DNA of 53,317 nucleotides, from the NCBI GenBank assembly GCA_949451655.1, contig CASTST010000003.1, forward strand, positions 1 through 53,317, read 5' to 3'. Below are positions 363 through 12,598 of the stretch, in pieces. The notes under the pieces were generated by a model. It searched no databases. It saw only the letters and a program-made list of their open reading frames with translations, and had not been told where the DNA came from. The stretch comes from an uncultured Eubacteriales bacterium (GTDB lineage Bacteria > Bacillota > Clostridia > Oscillospirales > CAG-272). The first letter of the stretch is position 1; every line of letters begins with the position of its first letter. A program made the translations under genes and the position numbers.

Positions 363-438
363 AGGGGTATAGCTCAGTTGGTAGAGCAGTGGTCTCCAAA
401 ACCACGTGTCCAGAGTTCGAGTCTTTGTGCCCCTGCCA
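363..438 (+). tRNA. tRNA-Trp (anticodon CCA), 76 nt, CCA end encoded
   Basis: Manual cloverleaf fold. Acceptor AGGGGTA/TGCCCCT, D-arm GCTC..GAGC, anticodon stem GTGGT/ACCAC with loop CTCCAAA, T-arm CAGAG-TTCGAGT-CTTTG, discriminator G, then CCA. Confidence 0.95.
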
Positions 439-443
439 TCTGA

Positions 444-496
444 AAACACCATTGAAATCCGAACCCCTGTGTTTGGACACCAATGGTGTTTTTGAT
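444..496 (+). terminator. Rho-independent terminator (tRNA trailer)
   Basis: Stem AACACCATTG (445-454) pairs with CAATGGTGTT (481-490) and is followed by a T-run. Confidence 0.75.
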
Positions 497-566: not shown

Positions 567-1865
567 TGTGAAATTTACAAGATGAATCACTGAAACCTAA
601 CCTTTTCGAACCCGTTAGTCTATTCGCACGTGTCTTATAAATCCGCTTGTTTTAAGGCGTATTCTTGTTCCTTTTGTTCTGGAGTCTTGTACTGTAGCTT
701 TTTATGTGGACGCTTTGTATTGTAAAATATTATATATTTGTCCACTGCATCACGAAACTCCTTTTCCGATTTGTATTTTGTTCTGTAAAGTTCTTCTCTC
801 TTCAGAGAAGAAAAGAACGATTCCATAACGGAATTGTCATACGGAACATAAGGTCGGGAAAAAGAATGCGTAATATTTAAAGACTTCAAGTAATCCTCCA
901 TTGTTTTAGAAGCGTAGTTGAATCCTCTGTCGGTATGAAAAATCAAATTTGTATTCGGTTGTCTTTTTGCATATGCTTGCTGGAAAGTTGACTTTACGAG
1001 TTGCGTGCTGTTTTTCTTTCCCACCTTATAGCCGATTACCAAGCGGGCGTATAAATCCATGACCACACAGATATAAAAGGCTTTGTCATGAAATTTGAAA
1101 TATGTAACATCGCTTACCCAAATCACATTTGGTGCATTCGGATCAAACTCTTGATTGAGACAATTTTTTTGCTTTCGCTTTTCCTCATCGTATAGTTTCT
1201 TTGCCACTTGACGGATGCTGCCGATTCCCATATCTTTCATAAGAGTACGTACCATTTCTTCACTTACTTTGATACCTTCATTTCGAATAACAGCGGTTAT
1301 TTTACCTGCACCAAAGATTTGATTGCTTTCATCATAAATTTCCCGTATTCGTATACGCAGTTCTTCTTTGCGCCTTGAATACCAAGTATTGTCTTTCTTG
1401 TTGCGAAAAATATGATTGTAGAATGTACCTCTCGAAATGTCCAATGCATCGCAGATTATATGAACATTATATTTCCCGTGCAACTGCTCGGCGGCATACA
1501 GTTTTTCTTTTAGTGGTGACTTGGCTGTACAAGTAACCGATTGCAGGAGTTCGATCATTCCCTCTAAACGCTTTACTTTATTTTCGAGCAAATGAAAGTT
1601 TCGAACATTGCTAACTTTTCGTTTGCTGTTGACTTGTTCTTCTCGATATACCTTCAGCCAACTGTAAAATGTGCTTTTTGGTACTCCAGTATCTGCAATA
1701 ATATTGGCTGCTGTTTCTCCACCGGATATAAAACGGTCAATACCCGCTTGCTTTTCTTCGTCAGTGTATTTACACATCATATAATCATCTCCTTCAAGAT
1801 GATTATATCATGTGGATTACAATTAATAAACTACAATATATATGGTTGTTGATTGAAAAATGACA
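567..1865 (-). mobile_element. IS3-family insertion sequence (boundaries approximate)
   Basis: It contains one 381-aa HTH+DDE transposase ORF. Candidate weak terminal inverted repeats start with TGTG at 567 and end with TGACA at 1861-1865 (about 13 of 24 matches by eye). The ~1.3 kb size fits IS3. Confidence 0.5.
635..1780 (-). CDS. IS3-family transposase, HTH and DDE (rve) domains fused in one frame
   Basis: N-terminal HTH (GVPKSTFYSWLKVYREE) followed by a heptad region. DDE signature: WVSDVTYF ... FHTDRGFNY ... MESFFSSLKRE. The tail YNTKRPHKKLQYKTP is typical of IS3 OrfB. Confidence 0.9.
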   Translation of the reverse strand: MMCKYTDEEKQAGIDRFISGGETAANIIADTGVPKSTFYSWLKVYREEQVNSKRKVSNVRNFHLLENKVKRLEGMIELLQSVTCTAKSPLKEKLYAAEQLHGKYNVHIICDALDISRGTFYNHIFRNKKDNTWYSRRKEELRIRIREIYDESNQIFGAGKITAVIRNEGIKVSEEMVRTLMKDMGIGSIRQVAKKLYDEEKRKQKNCLNQEFDPNAPNVIWVSDVTYFKFHDKAFYICVVMDLYARLVIGYKVGKKNSTQLVKSTFQQAYAKRQPNTNLIFHTDRGFNYASKTMEDYLKSLNITHSFSRPYVPYDNSVMESFFSSLKREELYRTKYKSEKEFRDAVDKYIIFYNTKRPHKKLQYKTPEQKEQEYALKQADL

Positions 1866-1957
1866 CAAAATATGATATAAATATAGTTGAAAGAATATAA
1901 GCTTGTTTTATCAGTAGAAAAAATTTTTTATAATAAAAAATGAAAGGATAAAAATGT

Positions 1958-4540
1958 ATGAATTTATTTGAGAGCGGTTCTGATTGGAGAAGATGGGATT
2001 TGCACTTACATACTGCAAGCTCATATGATTACGTATATAAAAACACGGATTGTGATGAAATATTAGCTCAAAAACTACAAGATAATAATATTGCAGCTGT
2101 AGCAATAACTGATCATTTTATAATAGACAAGGATAGAATTACCAATCTAAGAAAATTAGCTCCTGATACGGTATTCTTTCCTGGTGTAGAGTTGCGCACA
2201 GATAAAGGTGATACCAATATTCATATAATTCTAATATTTTCGGACAAATCTAATCTTGACGAACTTGCGGAAGATTTCAATGCGTTCAAAAGAGAGGCTC
2301 AAAACAAAGATGATGACGAAAGTATATATTGGGATTATAATTCACAAATAATTCCCTTTGCAGCAAAACATGATGCTTTGATTTCAATACACGCAGGAAG
2401 AAAGACAAACGGAGTTGACGATAGAATTTCTAATTCTCTGCCCCATAATCAAGCTGTTAAAGAGGAGTACGCTACAACGATATCTATGTTCGAAATGGGA
2501 CAAGTTCGAGATTTTGATGAATATAGAAAACATGTTTTCCCTGATATCGGGGTTAAGCCAATGGTAATTGGATCGGATAATCATGATGCACGAAATTATA
2601 ATCCTGCGAACAAACTGTGGATAAAAGCCGATGTTACATTTAATGGCTTAAAACAAATAATTTATGAACCAGAAGAACGTGTGTGCATCTCTGATACAAA
2701 ACCTGAATGTAAACCTGCCTATTATGTAATTGATAGAGTGGTTTTAGATGATGAAGAATTTTCAAATGAGCCTATTTATTTTAATGATAAGTTAACATGT
2801 ATCATTGGCGGGAAATCTACTGGCAAATCAATTCTCCTTCATAATATGGCTAAGGCTATTGATGAAAATCAAGTTCAGGTAAAAGAGCTGATTGTAAACA
2901 CTTCCACCAAAGAACTGACCAATACATCGGTTTATTGGTCTGATGGTGAAAATGATGGCGATAGACATATTATCTATATTCCGCAATCATATCTGAATTG
3001 TTTAAGTGACAAACAAGAGGTCACAACAGAAATAGATAATATGATTCAAAGTGTCATCTTTAATAATAAAAAGGCTAAGGCATCATTTGACAAAATGCTG
3101 AATGCAATAAAAGAAAAACGTTCGGAGCTAAATGTTAAAATTCTAAATTTGCTGGATATTCATAAAGAAATAGTTGAGTTAGAGGATGAAAAAAAGAATC
3201 TTGGAGATAGAAGCGGAATAGAAAAAGAAATTAAAAACCTTCAAGAACAGAAAGATGCGCTTTCCAAAGAATTAGAGATTTCTGATGAGGATATAACAAA
3301 ATATGAAACTGCATTAGCTGAAAGTTCTAACAAATTAAAACTATTAAACAAAGTGAATCAAGAGATATTATCACTTAAATCTATAACGACAATTGTTGAA
3401 CCCGCCGTTATTAGTTCGGATAATTTTTCTTATGATACTTTAAGAAAAGTCGACGAAACCAAAACTCAAATAATCGATGAAGCTAATAAAGTATGGACTT
3501 CGAAGAAAGAAGACCTTTTAAATGAATTAATCGACAAGCAAAAGCAACTGCAGGACGAAAAAGAAAAACATGATGCAGTTGTTAAAGAATTACAGCCTAA
3601 AATCCAAGGCAATAAAGCTATTGCTGAATTTTCTTCTAAAATATTAGCAGAAAAAGATAAACTTGCAGCATTTAATACTTTGGATGAAAAACTAAAAGCC
3701 AAAAAAGCTGAAGAGCAAATAATGATAGCTGAAATATATTCAATACCATTTCAAATAAAAGAACTGCGTAATGAATATGCGAGTGTTATAAATAACGAAG
3801 CAACTTTTAGAGGGCATGAAATAGAGTTTAAAGTCGAAGTACCGTTCAAAAAAGAGGAGTTTTTGAAAATAATTGAGACTGATTTCGTTATTAAAACTGT
3901 GAAATTCAAAGAAACAATAAAAATGGATTCTTTTGCTGAAGAAGATTACAATGAAGAAAAACTCAAAGAGATTATTGAAAAATTGTTATCGGGTGTGCTT
4001 GAAACCAAAGTTGGACATAACATTGAATCGATATTGAGAGATATTAATGATGACTGGTATAACATCAAATACAAGGTTATCATGGATAACGATAACATAG
4101 ATGTAATGTCTCCGGGTAAAAAAGCATTAGTATTGCTAAAGCTTTTAATCGATTTGGCAGAAAGCAAATGTCCTATTTTGATTGATCAGCCTGAAGATGA
4201 CCTTGACAATAGATCGGTGTTCGATGAATTGATTCCATTCATACGTCGTAAGAAAAAAGAGAGACAGATTATTGTTGTAACGCATAACGCCAATGTTGTT
4301 CTCGGCGCGGATGCAGAAGAAATAATAATAGCCAATCAAACCGGCAGCAAATCCGAGAATAAAGAAAAACGATTTGAATATCGCTCAGGTGCTATCGAAA
4401 ATGACAATCCTGTTTTCACTATAGATGGAAGCATAGAAAGTGGTATACTCAATTCAAAAGGTATACAACAGCATATTTGCGATATTCTCGAAGGTGGCGA
4501 AATTGCATTTGAAAAGAGAAAGAATAAATATAGAATTTAG
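1958..4540 (+). CDS. PHP-domain phosphoesterase fused to a Rad50/SbcC-like coiled-coil ABC-type ATPase (Ppl / TrlF-like)
   Basis: PHP metal-ligand motifs WDLHLHT, ITDH, GVE, SIHAG, GSDNHD. Walker A IIGGKSTGKS. A K/E-rich coiled-coil insert of about 350 aa. Signature-like SPGKKAL, Walker B ILIDQPEDDLD, H-loop VVTHN. RBS AAAGGA upstream. The gene is AT-rich. Confidence 0.8.
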   Translation: MNLFESGSDWRRWDLHLHTASSYDYVYKNTDCDEILAQKLQDNNIAAVAITDHFIIDKDRITNLRKLAPDTVFFPGVELRTDKGDTNIHIILIFSDKSNLDELAEDFNAFKREAQNKDDDESIYWDYNSQIIPFAAKHDALISIHAGRKTNGVDDRISNSLPHNQAVKEEYATTISMFEMGQVRDFDEYRKHVFPDIGVKPMVIGSDNHDARNYNPANKLWIKADVTFNGLKQIIYEPEERVCISDTKPECKPAYYVIDRVVLDDEEFSNEPIYFNDKLTCIIGGKSTGKSILLHNMAKAIDENQVQVKELIVNTSTKELTNTSVYWSDGENDGDRHIIYIPQSYLNCLSDKQEVTTEIDNMIQSVIFNNKKAKASFDKMLNAIKEKRSELNVKILNLLDIHKEIVELEDEKKNLGDRSGIEKEIKNLQEQKDALSKELEISDEDITKYETALAESSNKLKLLNKVNQEILSLKSITTIVEPAVISSDNFSYDTLRKVDETKTQIIDEANKVWTSKKEDLLNELIDKQKQLQDEKEKHDAVVKELQPKIQGNKAIAEFSSKILAEKDKLAAFNTLDEKLKAKKAEEQIMIAEIYSIPFQIKELRNEYASVINNEATFRGHEIEFKVEVPFKKEEFLKIIETDFVIKTVKFKETIKMDSFAEEDYNEEKLKEIIEKLLSGVLETKVGHNIESILRDINDDWYNIKYKVIMDNDNIDVMSPGKKALVLLKLLIDLAESKCPILIDQPEDDLDNRSVFDELIPFIRRKKKERQIIVVTHNANVVLGADAEEIIIANQTGSKSENKEKRFEYRSGAIENDNPVFTIDGSIESGILNSKGIQQHICDILEGGEIAFEKRKNKYRI

Positions 4541-4561
4541 CAGTAAGGAGGATAATATCAT

Positions 4562-5836
4562 ATGCAGGAAATAAAATGCCCAAAATGTGGAGAGGTGTTT
4601 CAGGTCGATGAGTCTGGTTATGCCGCTATTGTTAAGCAAGTTCGTGATAAAGAATTTGAAAAAGAGATATTAGAGCGACAGAATGTTTATCAAAACGAAA
4701 GGGATTCTGCAGTCAAAATCGCAGTAACAAAGATTGAGTCCGAAAAAGATAAAGAAATATCGGAGTTGCGTGCAATACTTAAAACCGAGAAGACAGAAAA
4801 GCAATTAGAAATTGAAAAAATTGAATCTGTTAAAGATAAACAACTTGCAGAAAAAGAATTAGAAATTTCCAGATTAAAGGGTGAACTCGAACTTAATAAA
4901 ACTAGCACAGACTTGACTGTTAAGAATGCGGTTCAGGAAAAAGAAACAACGATTCTTGAACTTAAAAGTCAAATTAAGCTTAAGAACAATGAATGGGAAT
5001 TGAAAGAAAAGTCTCTTTGTGAAAAGCACGCTGATGAAATTAAACGTCGAGAAGATGAAATTGCATATTATAAAGACTTTAAAGCTCGACAGTCTACAAA
5101 GATGATTGGCGAAAGTTTGGAACAACATTGTGAAACGGAATTTAATAAATTAAGAGCTACTGCGTTTCAGAATGCTTACTTTGAAAAAGATAATGATATT
5201 ACAACAGGTAGCAAAGGTGACTTTATCTACAGGGAATTTTCTAATGATGGTATAGAATTCATTTCAATTATGTTCGAAATGAAGAATGAAATGGATACTA
5301 CAGCAACAAAACATAAGAATGAGGATTTTTTTAAGGAACTAGATAAAGATAGAAAAGAAAAAAATTGTGAGTATGCTGTTTTGGTTACAATGCTTGAATC
5401 AGATAATGAGTATTACAATTCAGGAATTGTAGATGTTTCTTATAAATATCCTAAAATGTATGTTGTGATACCACAATTCTTTATACCTATCATTACTATT
5501 TTAAGAAATGCTGCATTAAACTCTCTGCAATATAGACACGAACTGGAGTCAGTTCGTAATCAAAATATTGATATTACGCATTTCGAAGAGGACATAAACG
5601 ACTTCAAGGATAAGTTTTCTAGAAATTTTAGATTAGCTAGTGACAAATTCAAAAAAGCTATCGATGAGATTGATAAAACTATTGACCATCTTCAAAAAAC
5701 AAAAGAAGCTTTGCTTTCATCTGAAAATAATTTAAGATTAGCAAACACCAAAGCTGAAGATCTTACGATAAAGCGATTAACAAAGGGTAATCCTACTATG
5801 GCAGCAAAGTTTGCCGAACTAGACAACAAAATATAA
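4562..5836 (+). CDS. DUF2130-like protein: N-terminal CxxC knuckle, coiled coil, C-terminal PD-(D/E)xK-like nuclease fold
   Basis: The start [33 protein letters not shown] matches my recollection of DUF2130 N-termini. The C-terminal core has GDFIY ... IMFEMKNE (D...ExK). A strong RBS AAGGAGG lies 21 bp after the previous stop, so the two genes are likely co-transcribed. Confidence 0.7.
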
Positions 5837-5840
5837 ATTG

Positions 5841-5900
5841 TGAAAACACTATTGAAATTCCGCGATTCTATGGTTTGAACTCAATGGGGTTTTGCTTTAT
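5841..5900 (+). terminator. Terminator-like hairpin that is a diverged second copy of the tRNA-Trp trailer
   Basis: TGAAAACACTATTGAAAT (5841-5858) matches TGAAAACACCATTGAAAT (441-458) at 17 of 18 positions. The distal arm CAATGGGGTTTTG corresponds to CAATGGTGTTTTTG. Confidence 0.55.
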
Positions 5901-5923: not shown

Positions 5924-6040
5924 TTAAAATTGGCTCTTTCCTTCTATTTCCTTATGTTTTGGAGTCTTGTACGCTGAGAGTTCAACTCCAACACGAAACC
6001 GCTGAAAATATCTTTTCCGTCCCGATTGGGCAGAGAGAAG
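5924..6040 (-). pseudogene. Remnant of the 3' end of a second IS3-family transposase
   Basis: The DNA block TGTTTTGGAGTCTTGTAC (about 5953-5970) matches TGTTCTGGAGTCTTGTAC near the stop of the intact transposase (about 682-699). The translated tail ..RFRVGVELSAYKTPKHKE resembles the IS3 OrfB C-terminus. No upstream DDE domain is present. Confidence 0.35.
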
Positions 6041-8502: not shown

Positions 8503-9065
8503 CTCCCGCGGCAAAGGGGTGCCGATGTAATCGGTGGGGGATTGTATACACGAACTGCCGATTTACAGATTATGCAAAATGATAGCAAGGACACTCCCTC
8601 AGTCTCCGCTCCGCGGAGCCAGCCCCCTTTGCACAAGGGGGCCTTTTTGTTTAAATTGGCTTGTGGGACAGCACTCGACACAGCACCACCCAATCATTAA
8701 CCCCTGTGCAAAACTTCAGTTGGCGTAGCTTCTTCCAACTATTAAGCCCCCTTGTGCAAGGGGCAGTCACGCCGCACCATGCCAGACTTAGCCCCCTTGT
8801 GCAAGGGGCGGTCACGCCGCGCCACACCAGACTTAGCCCCCCTTGTGCAAAGGGGGGTGCCGATGTAATCGGCGGGGGGATTGTATACACGAACTGCCGA
8901 TTTGCAGATTATACAAAATGATAGCAAGGACAATCCCTCAGTCGCTCCGCGACAGCTCCCTTTGCACAAGGGAGCCTTTTTGTTTGTACTATACGGAAGT
9001 TCCCTTTGATGGGGGCTTTTTTGTACTTGATTCGTGTTATCTTCCCTATACCGAGGAGGCTTTTT
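8503..9065 (+). repeat. Mosaic repeat cluster: two core elements plus 45-bp tandem A-type units and degenerate E-type hairpins
   Basis: Core copies at 8503-8649 and 8836-8982. Tandem 45-bp units at 8746-8790 and 8791-8835 (GCCCCCTTGTGCAAGGGGC.GTCACGCCGC..). The core architecture is described in the findings. Confidence 0.85.
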
Positions 9066-9136
9066 AAGTTGAAAATAAATTTTATTTCTGCCTTTTGGGT
9101 AAAATAAAAGAAAACGATCCGGGGGGAAAAGACAAA

Positions 9137-9982
9137 ATGCGGGAACGAATTTTATCTGACATTGCAATAAAACGTTTTGAAAAGCATCTGCAAAAGGAAG
9201 AAAAAAGCAAAAATACAATTGAAAAGTATCTGCGGGATGTGCGGGCGTTTATAAGATTTACAGGCAAAAGCAGCATTATCAAGGAAACGGTGATCGCCTA
9301 CAAAACACAGCTGATCCAAAATAACTACGCCGCCCACAGCATCAATTCCATGCTGGCAAGCATCAACAGCCTGTTCTCATTTCTTGGCTGGACGGACTGC
9401 AAGGTGAAATCTATCAAGCTCCAGCGACAAATCTACTGCCCTGAAGAAAAGGAACTGACCAAAGCGGAATATCTACGTCTTGTAAGCACAGCAAATAGCA
9501 GAGGCAACAAACGGCTTGGTCTCATTTTGCAGGCAATCTGCGGCACGGGAATCCGCGTGAGCGAGCTTCCGTTTATCACCGTAGAATCTGTCAAAGCTGG
9601 TGAAGCAGCCGTTTCGCTCAAGGGCAAGATGCGGTCCGTCTTTATTGTGCGAGATCTGCAAAAGAAACTGCTCCGCTATGCAGCAGAGCAGAAAATCAAA
9701 ACAGGATCAATATTTATTACCCGTACCGGCAAACCCATGAGCCGCACAAACATCTGGCGGGAAATGAAAAACCTTTGCATCCAGGCACATGTCAATCCCG
9801 GAAAAGTATTTCCCCATAATCTGCGGCATTTGTTCGCCCGCACCTTTTACGGCATTGAAAAAGATATTGCAAAACTTGCCGACATTCTCGGTCACAGCAG
9901 CATCAATACCACAAGAATCTATATTGTCACCACCGGAAATGAGCACCGCCGCCGCATGGAAAATATGAAGTTGATTTTATGA
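9137..9982 (+). CDS. Tyrosine site-specific recombinase (XerC/D-like integrase family)
   Basis: Catalytic signature GTGIRVSEL (Arg), HNLRHLFA (His-x-x-Arg), GHSSINTTRIY (His ... Tyr). An N-terminal SAM-like domain is present. The start is chosen at the ATG preceded by GGGGGGAAAAG; the ORF track alternative is 9095. Confidence 0.85.
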   Translation: MRERILSDIAIKRFEKHLQKEEKSKNTIEKYLRDVRAFIRFTGKSSIIKETVIAYKTQLIQNNYAAHSINSMLASINSLFSFLGWTDCKVKSIKLQRQIYCPEEKELTKAEYLRLVSTANSRGNKRLGLILQAICGTGIRVSELPFITVESVKAGEAAVSLKGKMRSVFIVRDLQKKLLRYAAEQKIKTGSIFITRTGKPMSRTNIWREMKNLCIQAHVNPGKVFPHNLRHLFARTFYGIEKDIAKLADILGHSSINTTRIYIVTTGNEHRRRMENMKLIL

Positions 9983-10208: not shown

Positions 10209-10251
10209 AGATTGTGTACAATAGGGTATATATTTCTGAAAGCATTCACCG

Positions 10252-10279
10252 TTACAACATAATGCAGTTTATGTTGCGG
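10252..10279. promoter_or_regulatory. Right lox-like recombination site (IRR), inverted relative to IRL
   Basis: TTACAACATA-ATGCAGTT-TATGTTGCGG. 25 consecutive nt (10252-10276) equal the reverse complement of the 25 nt at 10005-10029 in IRL, so the 8-bp core is flipped. The outer arm degenerates after 7 nt. Confidence 0.75.
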
Positions 10280-10306
10280 ATGCAGGGGAGGAGTGTTCAT
10301 TATAAT

Positions 10307-12598
10307 ATGGGAACCGTATTATTCAAACACAATTCTGACGCATATGAATCGGCACTTGCATTGTTGAAGCGAGAGAAAAAAGCCGCAGTCATTCATCCTA
10401 CAGGAACGGGGAAATCCTTCATCGGTTTCAAGCTGTGCGAGGATCACCCCGATATTACTGTCTGCTGGCTTTCTCCTTCCGAATACATTTTTCAAACCCA
10501 GCTCGAAAATTGGGTGGCAGCAGGCGGTACACAACTTGAAAATATCATTTTTATAACCTACGCCAAATTGATCCTGATGAGCGAAGAAGAACTGAATACC
10601 ATTCACCCCGGATATATCATTCTGGATGAATTTCATCGGGCAGGTTCCGAAATCTGGGGGAGCAGCGTCAAAAAACTGCTTATGCTATATGCAGGCACAC
10701 CGATTCTTGGACTTTCCGCAACCAATATCCGGTATCTTGACAATCAGCGCGATATGGCTGACGAACTGTTCGATGGTCACATCGCCTCAGAAATGACACT
10801 CGGCGAATCCATCGTGCGCGGCATTTTAAACGCGCCCAAATATGTGCTCTCCGTATTTTCCTATCAAAAAGATCTGGAAAGATATAGGGCAAAAATAAAA
10901 CGTTCTAAAAACAAGGCGGTTCGGGATGAAGCAGAGCAGTATCTCGAAGCGCTGCGCCGCGCCCTCGCAAAAGCGGACGGAATGGAGGAAATCTTTCAGA
11001 AACATATGGATGATCCCCATGGGAAATATATCGTTTTCTGCGCAAATGCGGAGCATATGCGGGAAATGATGGACAAAGCAAGCGAGTGGTTTCGTTTGGT
11101 TGACAAAAATCCCAATATATATTCCATGTATTCTGAAGATCCCGCGGCAAGAGCCTCTTTTGCCGCATTCAAAGCAGACAATGATGCTTCTCACCTGCGT
11201 CTGCTTTACTGCATTGACGCTTTGAACGAAGGCATTCATCTTGACGATGTAAGCGGCGTGATACTGCTTCGTCCCACTGTATCGCCTATCGTATATAAGC
11301 AGCAGATAGGACGTGCGCTTTCTGCATCCAAAAAGAAAAACGCAGTGATTTTCGATATTGTAATGAACATCGAAAATCTGTACAGTATCGGCATGTTAGA
11401 GGACGAAATGCAGATTGCAATGACCTACTACCGCTCTCTCGGAAACGGCGAGGCAATTGTAAACGAGCACTTCCGCATCATTGATGAGGTGCGCGACTGC
11501 CGCATGCTGTTTGAAAAGTTGAACGACACGCTTCATGCTTCATGGGACATAATGTATGAAAAAGCAGAGGAATATTTTTCGCAAAAGGGCGACCTTGCCG
11601 TTCCCCATCATTACAAAACAGATGAGGGATATTCACTCGGAAACTGGCTTCAAACGCAAAGAAAGGTCCGCTCCGGCGAGCAATACGGAACGCTGACAGA
11701 AGAACGGATTGAAAAGCTTGATGCAATCGGTATGATATGGGACAGCTACCGGGATCTTTCCTGGGAAAGAAACTTTACAGAAGCAAAAGCATATTATGAG
11801 GCTTTCGGTAATCTGAACGTCAGCATCAACTATGTAACACAAACCGGGCTGCGGCTGGGCGCATGGATTTCCAACCTGCGTGCCGCCAGAAAAAACGGAA
11901 GTCAGAGAAAAGACATTTCAGAACAGCGCATCGAGGCGCTTGACAAAATCGGCATGGTATGGGATATGTCGGATATGCTGTGGAATCAATACTACGGCGC
12001 ATGCCTGACATATTACCGCGAGCATGGCAATCTTGATGTGCCTGCCAGATATGTAACCGGCGACGGGCTGCGGCTGGGCAGTTGGATGATCCACGTCCGT
12101 GCATCATATAAAGGAAAAGGCAAAAATTATAAATTAAGCGATGCGCAGATACAGGCGCTGGACGAGATTGGAATGCTCTGGAATGGAAAGCATGACATGC
12201 TCTGGGAAAAAGGGTTTGAAGAGGCACAGAAATACCGCAGAGCCTTTGGAAATCTTGACGTTCCCACCGGATTCAAGACAGAATCGGGATACGCGCTTGG
12301 CAAATGGATTGCACGTCAAAGAGAAAATACCGGCTTGTCCGAATGCAGAAAAAACAAGCTAAGCAGTATCGGCATGATATGGAAAAAACAGGACTCGTGG
12401 GAAAAGCGCTATACCCTTGCCAAAGCATACTACAAGGAACACGGCAATTTGAATGTTCCTGCCAAATATACAGTCGATGGCATTTGGCTCAACAAATGGC
12501 TGAATGAGCAGCGTCAGATATATCTTGGCAAGCGGGGCAGCAAATGCCTGACCCAGGAACAAATTGCTAAGCTCAGTTCATTAGGTGTGATCCGGTGA
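10307..12598 (+). CDS. SF2 DEAD/DEAH-box (ResIII-like) helicase with five C-terminal helicase-associated (HA) domain repeats
   Basis: Motif I HPTGTGKS, motif II ILDEFH, SAT, motif VI QQIGRALS. Then five units of about 70 aa of the type ...HGNLNVP..Y....G..LG.W...QR........L...QI..L..IGM.W. The start is at the ATG after RBS GGGGAGGAG. Confidence 0.8.
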   Translation: MGTVLFKHNSDAYESALALLKREKKAAVIHPTGTGKSFIGFKLCEDHPDITVCWLSPSEYIFQTQLENWVAAGGTQLENIIFITYAKLILMSEEELNTIHPGYIILDEFHRAGSEIWGSSVKKLLMLYAGTPILGLSATNIRYLDNQRDMADELFDGHIASEMTLGESIVRGILNAPKYVLSVFSYQKDLERYRAKIKRSKNKAVRDEAEQYLEALRRALAKADGMEEIFQKHMDDPHGKYIVFCANAEHMREMMDKASEWFRLVDKNPNIYSMYSEDPAARASFAAFKADNDASHLRLLYCIDALNEGIHLDDVSGVILLRPTVSPIVYKQQIGRALSASKKKNAVIFDIVMNIENLYSIGMLEDEMQIAMTYYRSLGNGEAIVNEHFRIIDEVRDCRMLFEKLNDTLHASWDIMYEKAEEYFSQKGDLAVPHHYKTDEGYSLGNWLQTQRKVRSGEQYGTLTEERIEKLDAIGMIWDSYRDLSWERNFTEAKAYYEAFGNLNVSINYVTQTGLRLGAWISNLRAARKNGSQRKDISEQRIEALDKIGMVWDMSDMLWNQYYGACLTYYREHGNLDVPARYVTGDGLRLGSWMIHVRASYKGKGKNYKLSDAQIQALDEIGMLWNGKHDMLWEKGFEEAQKYRRAFGNLDVPTGFKTESGYALGKWIARQRENTGLSECRKNKLSSIGMIWKKQDSWEKRYTLAKAYYKEHGNLNVPAKYTVDGIWLNKWLNEQRQIYLGKRGSKCLTQEQIAKLSSLGVIR

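Follow-up and report, generated by a model that had tools for sequence, protein, structure and literature searches.

A TrlF-family PHP-ATPase gene and a DUF2130 gene on a recently mobile islet: a recurrent but optional pairing with a possible role in defence

We analysed a stretch of 53,317 nt (the window) from contig CASTST010000003.1 of an uncultured Eubacteriales bacterium of the CAG-272 lineage (assembly GCA_949451655.1). Close to its left end lie the two genes that are the subject of this report, arranged as an operon on one strand: gene 1, for a TrlF-family PHP-ATPase, and gene 2, for a DUF2130 protein. With their candidate signals they are laid out as follows.

1958 to 4540, forward strand: gene 1, 860 amino acids, predicted TrlF-family PHP nuclease fused to an SMC-like ABC ATPase
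4562 to 5836, forward strand: gene 2, 424 amino acids, DUF2130 protein
4545 to 4551, forward strand: Shine-Dalgarno sequence AAGGAGG, 10 nt 5' of the gene 2 ATG, read from the sequence
1860 to 1887, forward strand: promoter-like site ATGACA-16-TATAGT upstream of gene 1, 10 of 12 matches in a consensus scan, weak evidence

Both open reading frames (ORFs) lie where an initial annotation, made without database searches, had placed them, and the 21-bp gap between them holds the strong ribosome-binding site that it described. A sequence scan found no terminator-like site between the two genes. The number of promoter-like sites in the consensus scan was not above shuffled expectation.

Gene 1 matches the NCBIfam model TrlF_fam_ATP (NF045780) at 506.8 bits, where the cutoff is 350, and residues 7 to 859 align with positions 2 to 944 of the 944-position profile, which confirms the TrlF-family label that the annotation had given it. 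Its further suggestion that gene 1 matches Ppl did not hold. The NCBIfam Ppl model (NF042955) gave 112 bits, and the PADLOC Ppl model (PDLC02208) matched only in part (4e-29; residues 422 to 792 on positions 490 to 850 of 894, about 40% of the profile). Because the equivalog cutoff for Ppl is 1000 bits, we rejected filing gene 1 under that name. The match to NCBIfam Spaf_1101 (125 bits) was likewise below cutoff (475), and the N-terminus of gene 1 matched PADLOC PDC-M49A at 1e-10. In the hidden Markov model (HMM) searches the TrlF and DUF2130 calls of the annotation were upheld above cutoff, whereas Pfam PHP alone stayed sub-threshold for gene 1 (E 0.014). Gene 1 adds a member to a named family that is related to Ppl and has yet to be characterised functionally; by profile and motif it is a full-length TrlF-family protein, in which a predicted PHP nuclease domain is fused to an SMC-like ABC ATPase. 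Its parts are these.

1985 to 2692, forward strand: PHP domain, residues about 10 to 245, with H16, H18, D52, H53, E78, H89, H145, D207 and H209
2720 to 3052, forward strand: ATPase N-lobe, residues about 255 to 365, with Walker A GGKSTGKS (284 to 291) and Q-loop Q343
3068 to 3796, forward strand: helical coiled-coil insertion, residues 371 to 613, with outward helices (371 to 475), apex (476 to 491) and return helices (492 to 613)
3815 to 4537, forward strand: ATPase C-lobe, residues about 620 to 860, with signature SPGKK (718 to 722), Walker B ILIDQPEDDLD (740 to 750) and H-loop H776

To judge how far these motifs are conserved, we aligned 70 full-length relatives drawn from many phyla. Among the PHP ligands, E78 and D207 never vary, H16, H18, H89 and H209 are kept in 55 to 66 of the 70 relatives, and gene 1 itself holds the full ligand set, as had been claimed for it. 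The ATPase motifs are more uniform still: G284, G289 and K290 of Walker A, Q343, G720 of the signature, and D743-Q-P-E-D747 and D750 of Walker B occur in all 70 relatives, S291 and H776 in 69, and S718 in 61. The SMC/Rad50-like nature of this ATPase is also borne out by structure. The AlphaFold2 (AF2) model of gene 1 (mean predicted local distance difference test score, pLDDT, 70) shows an N-terminal alpha/beta domain followed by a helix-split ATPase head. In Foldseek searches of the Protein Data Bank the head and arm matched Wadjet JetC, MukB, Smc, Rad50 (7zr1) and Lamassu LmuB (9hqx_B) at E values of 1e-6 to 1e-4, and the N-terminus matched the PHP protein RNase AM (7ug9; target TM 0.57), Pol III alpha and PolC. 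At the level of sequence, phmmer against solved structures gave only a marginal match, to the SMC head 1e69 (E 4e-4). The coiled coil, put at about 350 residues in the annotation, is shorter than that: in the AF2 secondary structure the insertion spans about 245 residues, with pLDDT mostly 70 to 94. Gene 1 has no cysteine between residues 349 and 737, so that the insertion and its apex lack a zinc hook of the Rad50 type.

Gene 2 divides into four parts.

Residues 2 to 15: predicted zinc-ribbon knuckle, C6/C9
Residues 17 to 180: single long helix of 164 residues (AF2 model)
Residues 186 to 333: predicted alpha/beta nuclease-type core with D220, E239 and K241
Residues 341 to 423: C-terminal helices (AF2 model)

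The Pfam match to DUF2130 (PF09903) reaches 3.1e-91 and 305.6 bits, with a gathering threshold of 26.7 (residues 150 to 408 on positions 2 to 254 of 255), and by this match and its motifs gene 2 is a typical family member with a predicted PD-(D/E)xK-type core; the CxxC knuckle, coiled coil and D...ExK core named in the annotation are all in place. We aligned 15 members from Bacillota (Firmicutes), Actinomycetota and Alpha-, Beta- and Gammaproteobacteria. D220, E239 and K241 are invariant across these five phylum- or class-level groups, and C6 and C9 are kept in at least 90% of the sequences. The core (residues about 170 to 400) is extraordinarily conserved across phyla, at about 80%, and the only variable part of the alignment is the N-terminal coiled coil, by repeat expansion. 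Gene 2 thus holds every invariant residue of the family (PF09903, COG4487), most members of which stand alone. In the AF2 model (mean pLDDT 74.7; core 42 to 82) D220, E239 and K241 map to predicted strands 217 to 226 and 232 to 238 or to their ends. A Foldseek search with this model, built from a shallow alignment of 30 sequences at least 76% identical, gave a best E of 0.067, which is not significant; the weak, non-significant matches include EcoT38I, YaeQ, Card1, Can2 and Cap4, several of them with a restriction-endonuclease fold. Sequence searches of solved structures and of NCBIfam returned no match for gene 2. A 2012 survey lists DUF2130 as a member of the PD-(D/E)XK superfamily of unknown function, with horizontal transfer (PMC3424549). 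Since the fold search was not significant, the nuclease assignment rests on motif conservation together with this literature.

The annotation had remarked that DUF2130 was not an assigned partner in any defence system, and our searches agree. Gene 2 matched no family in PADLOC v2 at E <= 0.1, its Citrobacter homologue matched none in PADLOC at E <= 0.001, and its Lactococcus homologue drew only weak matches of a coiled-coil type to LmuB. Literature searches on DUF2130, PF09903 and COG4487 found nothing on function, on a link to defence or on a link to PHP-ATPases, and no description of the TrlF-DUF2130 pairing was found in PADLOC v2, NCBIfam or the searchable literature.

The operon lies in a small islet whose limits are marked by the following features.

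363 to 438, forward strand: tRNA-Trp (CCA), found by ARAGORN; Rfam tRNA, 62.9 bits
409 to 6032, no strand: shared block, 99.7% identical by blastn to locus L001 of GCA_021770205.1, with flanks that differ on both sides
442 to 492, forward strand: hairpin repeat copy 1, GAAAACACCATTGAAAT...CAATGGTGTTTT, inverted repeat I2, just 3' of tRNA-Trp
635 to 1780, reverse strand: IS3-family transposase, 381 amino acids, helix-turn-helix plus rve (Pfam rve 3e-24, rve_3, HTH_21)
5842 to 5893, forward strand: hairpin repeat copy 2, directly 3' of the gene 2 stop codon, found by motif search

The shared block, of about 5.6 kb and low GC content with a single IS3 transposase, starts directly after a tRNA gene in both genomes. 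This gene is tRNA-Trp in the window, where it is the sole Rfam match in the first 10 kb, and tRNA-Ser in L001. The true left edge of the block is at about 439, the 30 nt from 409 to 438 matching through the conserved tRNA T-arm alone. Because the overlap is only this conserved arm, and because the flanking tRNAs differ between the genomes, we rejected integration into the tRNA 3' end. GC content is 30 to 35% over the first 6 kb of the window and about 45% elsewhere. The low GC content, and a 99.7% identical block within different flanks, identify the islet in this comparison as recently mobile and horizontally acquired. The AT-rich, tRNA-adjacent and acquired character described in the annotation therefore stands, but its description as flanked by insertion sequences (IS) does not: by tblastn the transposase has a single copy in the window, on the left side only. 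For the same reason a composite transposon with two IS copies was rejected, and a 31-nt repeat at 5942 to 5972 is unsupported at the protein level as an IS remnant. What does bracket the transposase, gene 1 and gene 2 is a hairpin of about 50 nt (GAAAACACYATTGAAAT...CAATGGKGTTTT), a 17-nt motif of which occurs only twice in 53 kb where 0.01 occurrences are expected by chance. Its second copy is the probable terminator and right-hand repeat of the islet, and the pair could represent an att-like repeat, a duplicated terminator or an element end.

We asked how often the two genes occur together by sampling from both families. The TrlF-anchored sample took one genome per species and held at least 578 relatives, of which the best 80 loci were examined with flanks of 10 kb on either side; 67 of the 80 had enough downstream sequence to judge. 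DUF2130 was present at five loci (L004, L005, L009, L030 and L059), each time immediately downstream of TrlF on the same strand, and it was found nowhere else in the flanks of the 80 loci, even with a broadened profile and jackhmmer. It also lies immediately downstream of TrlF in the P0195 loci. The DUF2130-anchored sample consisted of 80 diverse metagenomic loci at 54 to 94% identity. Three of these (L111, L120 and L122) carry a TrlF-like gene, each immediately upstream, and the TrlF of L120 is a further distinct lineage, at most 37% identical, in partial alignments, to any other homologue collected. Among 72,556 plasmids, DUF2130 was found in 72 records and TrlF-like genes in 1,093. At least eight Lactococcus plasmids carry the two in reversed order, DUF2130 then TrlF, beside an Eco57I-type restriction-modification (R-M) gene, with a gap of 46 bp in pCV56A and of about 70 to 100 bp between tblastn matches in the others; in the collected set the closest relative of their TrlF shares about 33% identity with it.

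Adjacency to DUF2130 thus spans at least five TrlF lineages, mutually less than 40% identical, and both gene orders. In a neighbour-joining tree the DUF2130-paired TrlF proteins fall in at least two remote places, and the TrlG-linked ones form one clade. Given a second gene in the locus, the chance of its always taking the adjacent slot is about 4e-4 in the TrlF sample and 0.02 in the DUF2130 sample. The association of TrlF with DUF2130 is real but optional, and the synteny proposed in the annotation is seen in this recurrence, though most members of each family stand alone. The window's own TrlF clade gives an example: a homologue 67% identical to gene 1 retains the pair, behind an Eco57I-type methylase, and three others, 59%, 52% and 49% identical, sit on mobile elements without DUF2130. 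At L005 TrlF is 82% identical to that of the window and DUF2130 only 59%, so that the partner allele has been exchanged there.

In the 67%-identical relative (L098, 150 to 8082) an 863-amino-acid methylase/Eco57I-type gene and a gene for a 410-amino-acid protein precede TrlF and DUF2130. All four lie on one strand with gaps of 9 to 20 bp and may form a four-gene unit; the 410-amino-acid protein has no Pfam match on record.

We then considered the company that TrlF relatives keep. TrlF/Ppl-type PHP-ATPases form about 1,200 clusters at 50% identity (E <= 1e-30), and members of the TrlF family are embedded among R-M, Abi, Gabija-like and BREX genes. Tightly linked neighbours include TrlG-like (8 loci) and HsdR-like genes (5 loci), Eco57I/MmeI-type enzymes, N6/N4 and C5 methylases, HsdS, AIPR with Fic, and Hypoth_Ymh. 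At two further loci (L034 and L048) PDDEXK_1/Cas4-like nucleases occupy the same downstream slot as DUF2130. On the Klebsiella IncFII plasmid pKP29105-2 (L096), TrlF lies between a pair made up of a Gabija-like ATPase and UvrD, and an Abi gene. Most of the 1,093 plasmid records with TrlF belong to conjugative plasmids from Klebsiella and E. coli. Phages rarely carry TrlF-like genes: seven records did, and the closest matches were in small elements of 14 to 22 kb.

Ppl, which reportedly comes from the single-gene anti-phage systems of Gao et al. 2020, is to our knowledge the only studied member of the TrlF/Ppl-type PHP-ATPases. Like gene 1, it joins a PHP nuclease to an NTPase that has a helical insertion, as the partial HMM matches reflect, and like gene 1 it leads a mobile, defence-island lifestyle. 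Gene 1 differs in falling far below the equivalog cutoff and in having a second nuclease-type gene co-transcribed with it, where Ppl acts alone. Ppl is a validated single-gene anti-phage system (PMC12904381, PMC11482910). It is a 3'-5' exonuclease of single-stranded DNA that is inhibited by NTPs bound to its PHP and NTPase domains, and its activation takes both a depletion of nucleotides caused by the phage and 3'-OH ends from phage homing endonucleases, on which E. coli Ppl is reported to depend for such ends (PMC12904381). A phage counter-defence protein against it, Bas63 gp130, has been described (PMC11482910).

With these comparisons in hand, our preferred reading, to which we give even weight for and against, is that the operon on this small, recently mobile islet encodes a defence core that degrades DNA in the manner of Ppl, with a DUF2130 nuclease as an optional addition, and is directed against phage or plasmid DNA. 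It would probably be an optional two-part variant of a known defence type rather than a fixed new system. Gene 1 would be the autonomous core, made up of a metal-dependent PHP nuclease domain and an SMC/Rad50-like ATPase. By analogy with Ppl, recognition of DNA ends or structures may fall to its ATPase and arm, which may also use nucleotide to gate the PHP exonuclease. DUF2130 would be an optional endonuclease that makes or recognises breaks and supplies 3'-OH ends, from which the PHP exonuclease could then degrade. Such a division of labour is suggested by the recurrence of endonuclease-type genes (DUF2130, PDDEXK_1 and restriction enzymes) beside TrlF.

Several observations weigh against this reading. 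Pairing is a minority condition: 75 of the 80 TrlF loci are without DUF2130 and 77 of the 80 DUF2130 loci are without TrlF. Homologues of gene 2 at 66 to 89% identity occur without an intact TrlF partner, and those at 78% (P0093) and 66% have housekeeping genes as neighbours. Each gene has also been found decayed beside an intact partner, DUF2130 as two ORFs of 259 and 151 amino acids beside intact TrlF at L099 and L100, and TrlF as short 3' remnants upstream of an intact DUF2130, 89% identical to gene 2, at L110; neither gene, it follows, needs the other to persist. Of the 95 immediate DUF2130 neighbours only about 10 to 15% are defence genes, the rest being largely housekeeping. The cross-phylum conservation of the DUF2130 core is unusually high for a defence gene, its PD-(D/E)xK fold was not confirmed by the fold search (best E about 0.07), and, because gene 1 is not a Ppl equivalog, the Ppl mechanism is an extrapolation from architecture. 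The sampling from both families and the independent decay of each gene led us to reject an obligate two-gene system, and with it the annotation's two-component module as an obligate pair.

Some of these observations favour an arrangement of two independent single-gene modules, neighbours merely through the packing of islands and islets, with gene 1 acting alone like Ppl and DUF2130 serving a separate role, whether in defence or elsewhere. In both families solo members greatly outnumber paired ones, either gene can decay without the other, and Ppl was validated as a single gene. TrlF stands alone on Klebsiella and S. aureus plasmids and on the three mobile elements of the window's clade. DUF2130, for its part, also adjoins OLD, NERD-UvrD, PDC-S06, DUF4297-HerA, BREX and HsdR genes, and paired and solo copies show no obvious sequence difference, as the solo P0093 homologue illustrates. 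Packing would, however, have to account for strict adjacency: in at least five TrlF lineages, and whichever of the two genes comes first, copies within 6 to 10 kb of each other are always direct neighbours on the same strand. It would also have to account for a frequency of DUF2130 of 5 in 1,136 TrlF-flanking ORFs, where plasmids have roughly one such gene in 100,000 (76 places in 7.3 Gb). In the window, moreover, the 21-bp gap has no terminator and the two genes have been mobilised jointly as a two-gene cargo. We regard independent modules as a serious but rather doubtful explanation.

The TrlF family takes its name from trlG-trlF-trlR, the temperature restriction locus (TRL) of Photorhabdus laumondii, whose deletion permits growth at 36 C (PMC7554251). 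A stress-triggered restriction of growth, such as a halt of the host by temperature, might therefore be proposed for the present operon. Gene 1 has the PHP plus split ABC ATPase architecture and the conserved ATPase motifs of the family. The type locus, however, pairs TrlF with TrlG (AlbA_2 plus HATPase_c_4) and the small regulator TrlR. Neither a TrlG nor a TrlR gene was found in the window, where DUF2130 is the only co-transcribed partner of gene 1 and no regulator accompanies it. The TrlG-linked proteins also form a clade separate from gene 1, with altered PHP ligands at H89, H209 and D52, all of which gene 1 keeps. In the P. laumondii study the selected mutations were all in trlG and none in trlF (PMC7554251), so that TrlF is without demonstrated function. 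Nor would growth restriction be a truly separate function, as the phenotype also fits autoimmunity of an abortive defence system. We consider this explanation very improbable.

The TrlG-linked clade (L058, L060, L062, L065, L072, L077, L080 and L082; also L056, L057 and L078) is of interest in itself. H89 is replaced by L in 11 of 11 members, H209 by K or R in 10 and D52 by N in 9, and all ATPase motifs are retained. Judging from these replacements, the clade to which the TrlG-linked, canonical TRL-type loci belong may have a remodelled or an inactive PHP site.

The layout of gene 1 also recalls SbcCD and Mre11-Rad50, in which an SMC-class ABC head split by an antiparallel coiled coil works with a metal-dependent nuclease. 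A non-defence role would accordingly make the operon a module for DNA repair, recombination or element maintenance, an SbcCD- or RmuC-like pair that processes ends or secondary structures. One TrlF relative does lie next to such genes: at L103 to L105 (P0240), 14 bp separate an sbcD-sbcC pair from the start of a TrlF homologue that shares 49% identity with gene 1. They belong to a same-strand array, seen in many samples, of a PLD/helicase DUF3427 protein, sbcD, sbcC and the TrlF homologue. DUF2130, highly conserved across phyla and with some copies among housekeeping genes, would suit such a role too, being common on conjugative plasmids (30 of 72 records) and without a match in 50,697 phage genomes, a result for which we rejected the idea of DUF2130 as a phage gene. 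Yet the distribution of the genes is patchy and horizontally transferred, the TrlF family sits among R-M, Abi, Gabija-like and BREX genes, and its nearest characterised relative, Ppl, is an anti-phage protein. The likeness to SbcCD has limits as well. In gene 1 the PHP domain is fused in cis in place of a separate calcineurin-type Mre11/SbcD, Pfam found no Metallophos or SbcD domain in gene 1 or gene 2, and the arm, at about 245 residues, is short and lacks the CxxC hook of Rad50. A role outside defence appears improbable to us.

Gene 1 may also be compared with Lamassu (LmuB with the effector LmuA) and Wadjet (JetC), both cases of SMC-like ATPase immunity in which DNA sensing is coupled to a nuclease effector. 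JetC and LmuB were among the top structural matches of gene 1, and partners are variable and modular across the family. Here, in contrast, the effector is fused to the ATPase, and kleisin/KITE or LmuC-type subunits are absent. Gene 1 matched the LmuB profiles at insignificant E values of 0.0023 and 0.0092, and its structural likeness to 9hqx_B is one that SMC-class proteins share in general.

DUF2130 is found beside other ATPases as well. In the metagenomic set its defence neighbours are HsdR, BrxC, PglX, a type IIG enzyme, DpdF and PDC-S06, and on individual plasmids it was seen with TIR/caspase/Fic, type I R-M, DUF4297 plus HerA, NERD-UvrD and an OLD-family nuclease; the plasmid hosts include lactococci, rhizobia and plant pathogens. 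On plasmid pG322 of L. cremoris (L094, NZ_AP024212.1) an AAA_13 ATPase, which matches the PADLOC candidate PDC-S06 at 814 bits, lies 3' of DUF2130 in place of TrlF. This plasmid and pCV56A of L. lactis (L090, NC_017483.1) have the same 376-amino-acid upstream gene followed by DUF2130, and it is the downstream ATPase that is swapped. AAA_13/PDC-S06 adjoins DUF2130 in 2 of the 95 metagenomic neighbours.

On a Citrobacter freundii plasmid (L095, NZ_CP056645.1, 4118 to 7410) an OLD-family ATPase-TOPRIM nuclease gene ends 2 bp before DUF2130. The pair belongs to a same-strand cluster with genes for a WYL protein, a helicase, a DUF4391 protein, a DNA methyltransferase and a DEAD/DEAH helicase.

From its place beside TrlF (at least five lineages), AAA_13/PDC-S06 ATPases and an OLD-family ATPase-TOPRIM nuclease, one could propose that DUF2130 is a modular nuclease partner of coiled-coil ABC-ATPase immunity proteins in general. 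Its own long coiled coil might bind to the arm of the ATPase; alternatively, DNA sensed by the ATPase might be what DUF2130 cuts. We think a partnership of this breadth unlikely. Were it true, the combination of an ATPase with DUF2130 would define a new family of defence systems with two components, and there would be a function for a PD-(D/E)xK family that is among the more conserved of those still uncharacterised. If, on the other hand, the two genes act independently, the finding shrinks to an ordinary defence islet with a Ppl-like gene.

For the TrlF family the comparisons describe a protein that swaps partners (TrlG, DUF2130, PDDEXK_1 and restriction enzymes), which leads to a testable idea, that a partner endonuclease supplies DNA ends to an end-dependent exonuclease. 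For DUF2130, a strongly conserved nuclease-type family without a known role, they offer a first functional lead. The Lactococcus plasmids are a natural and tractable test system, with well-known dairy phages.

Elsewhere the window looks like ordinary chromosomal DNA, with genes for a MATE transporter, a RelA/SpoT-domain protein, a tyrosine recombinase, an HA-domain helicase, a polysaccharide biosynthesis cluster and AddAB. Between the RelA/SpoT-domain and tyrosine recombinase genes, at 8516 to 8985, lies a cluster of GC-rich palindromic units that resemble repetitive extragenic palindromic (REP) elements, with the core GCCCCCTTGTGCAAGGGGGC. The cluster holds direct repeats of 69 and 45 nt, and one 51-nt unit recurs in L001 at 11703 to 11753. 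The tyrosine recombinase gene (9095 to 9982) is followed by a gene for a 794-amino-acid helicase with five HA (helicase-associated) domains (10214 to 12598), and this stretch, which directly precedes the polysaccharide biosynthesis cluster, may be another mobile or defence-type insertion.

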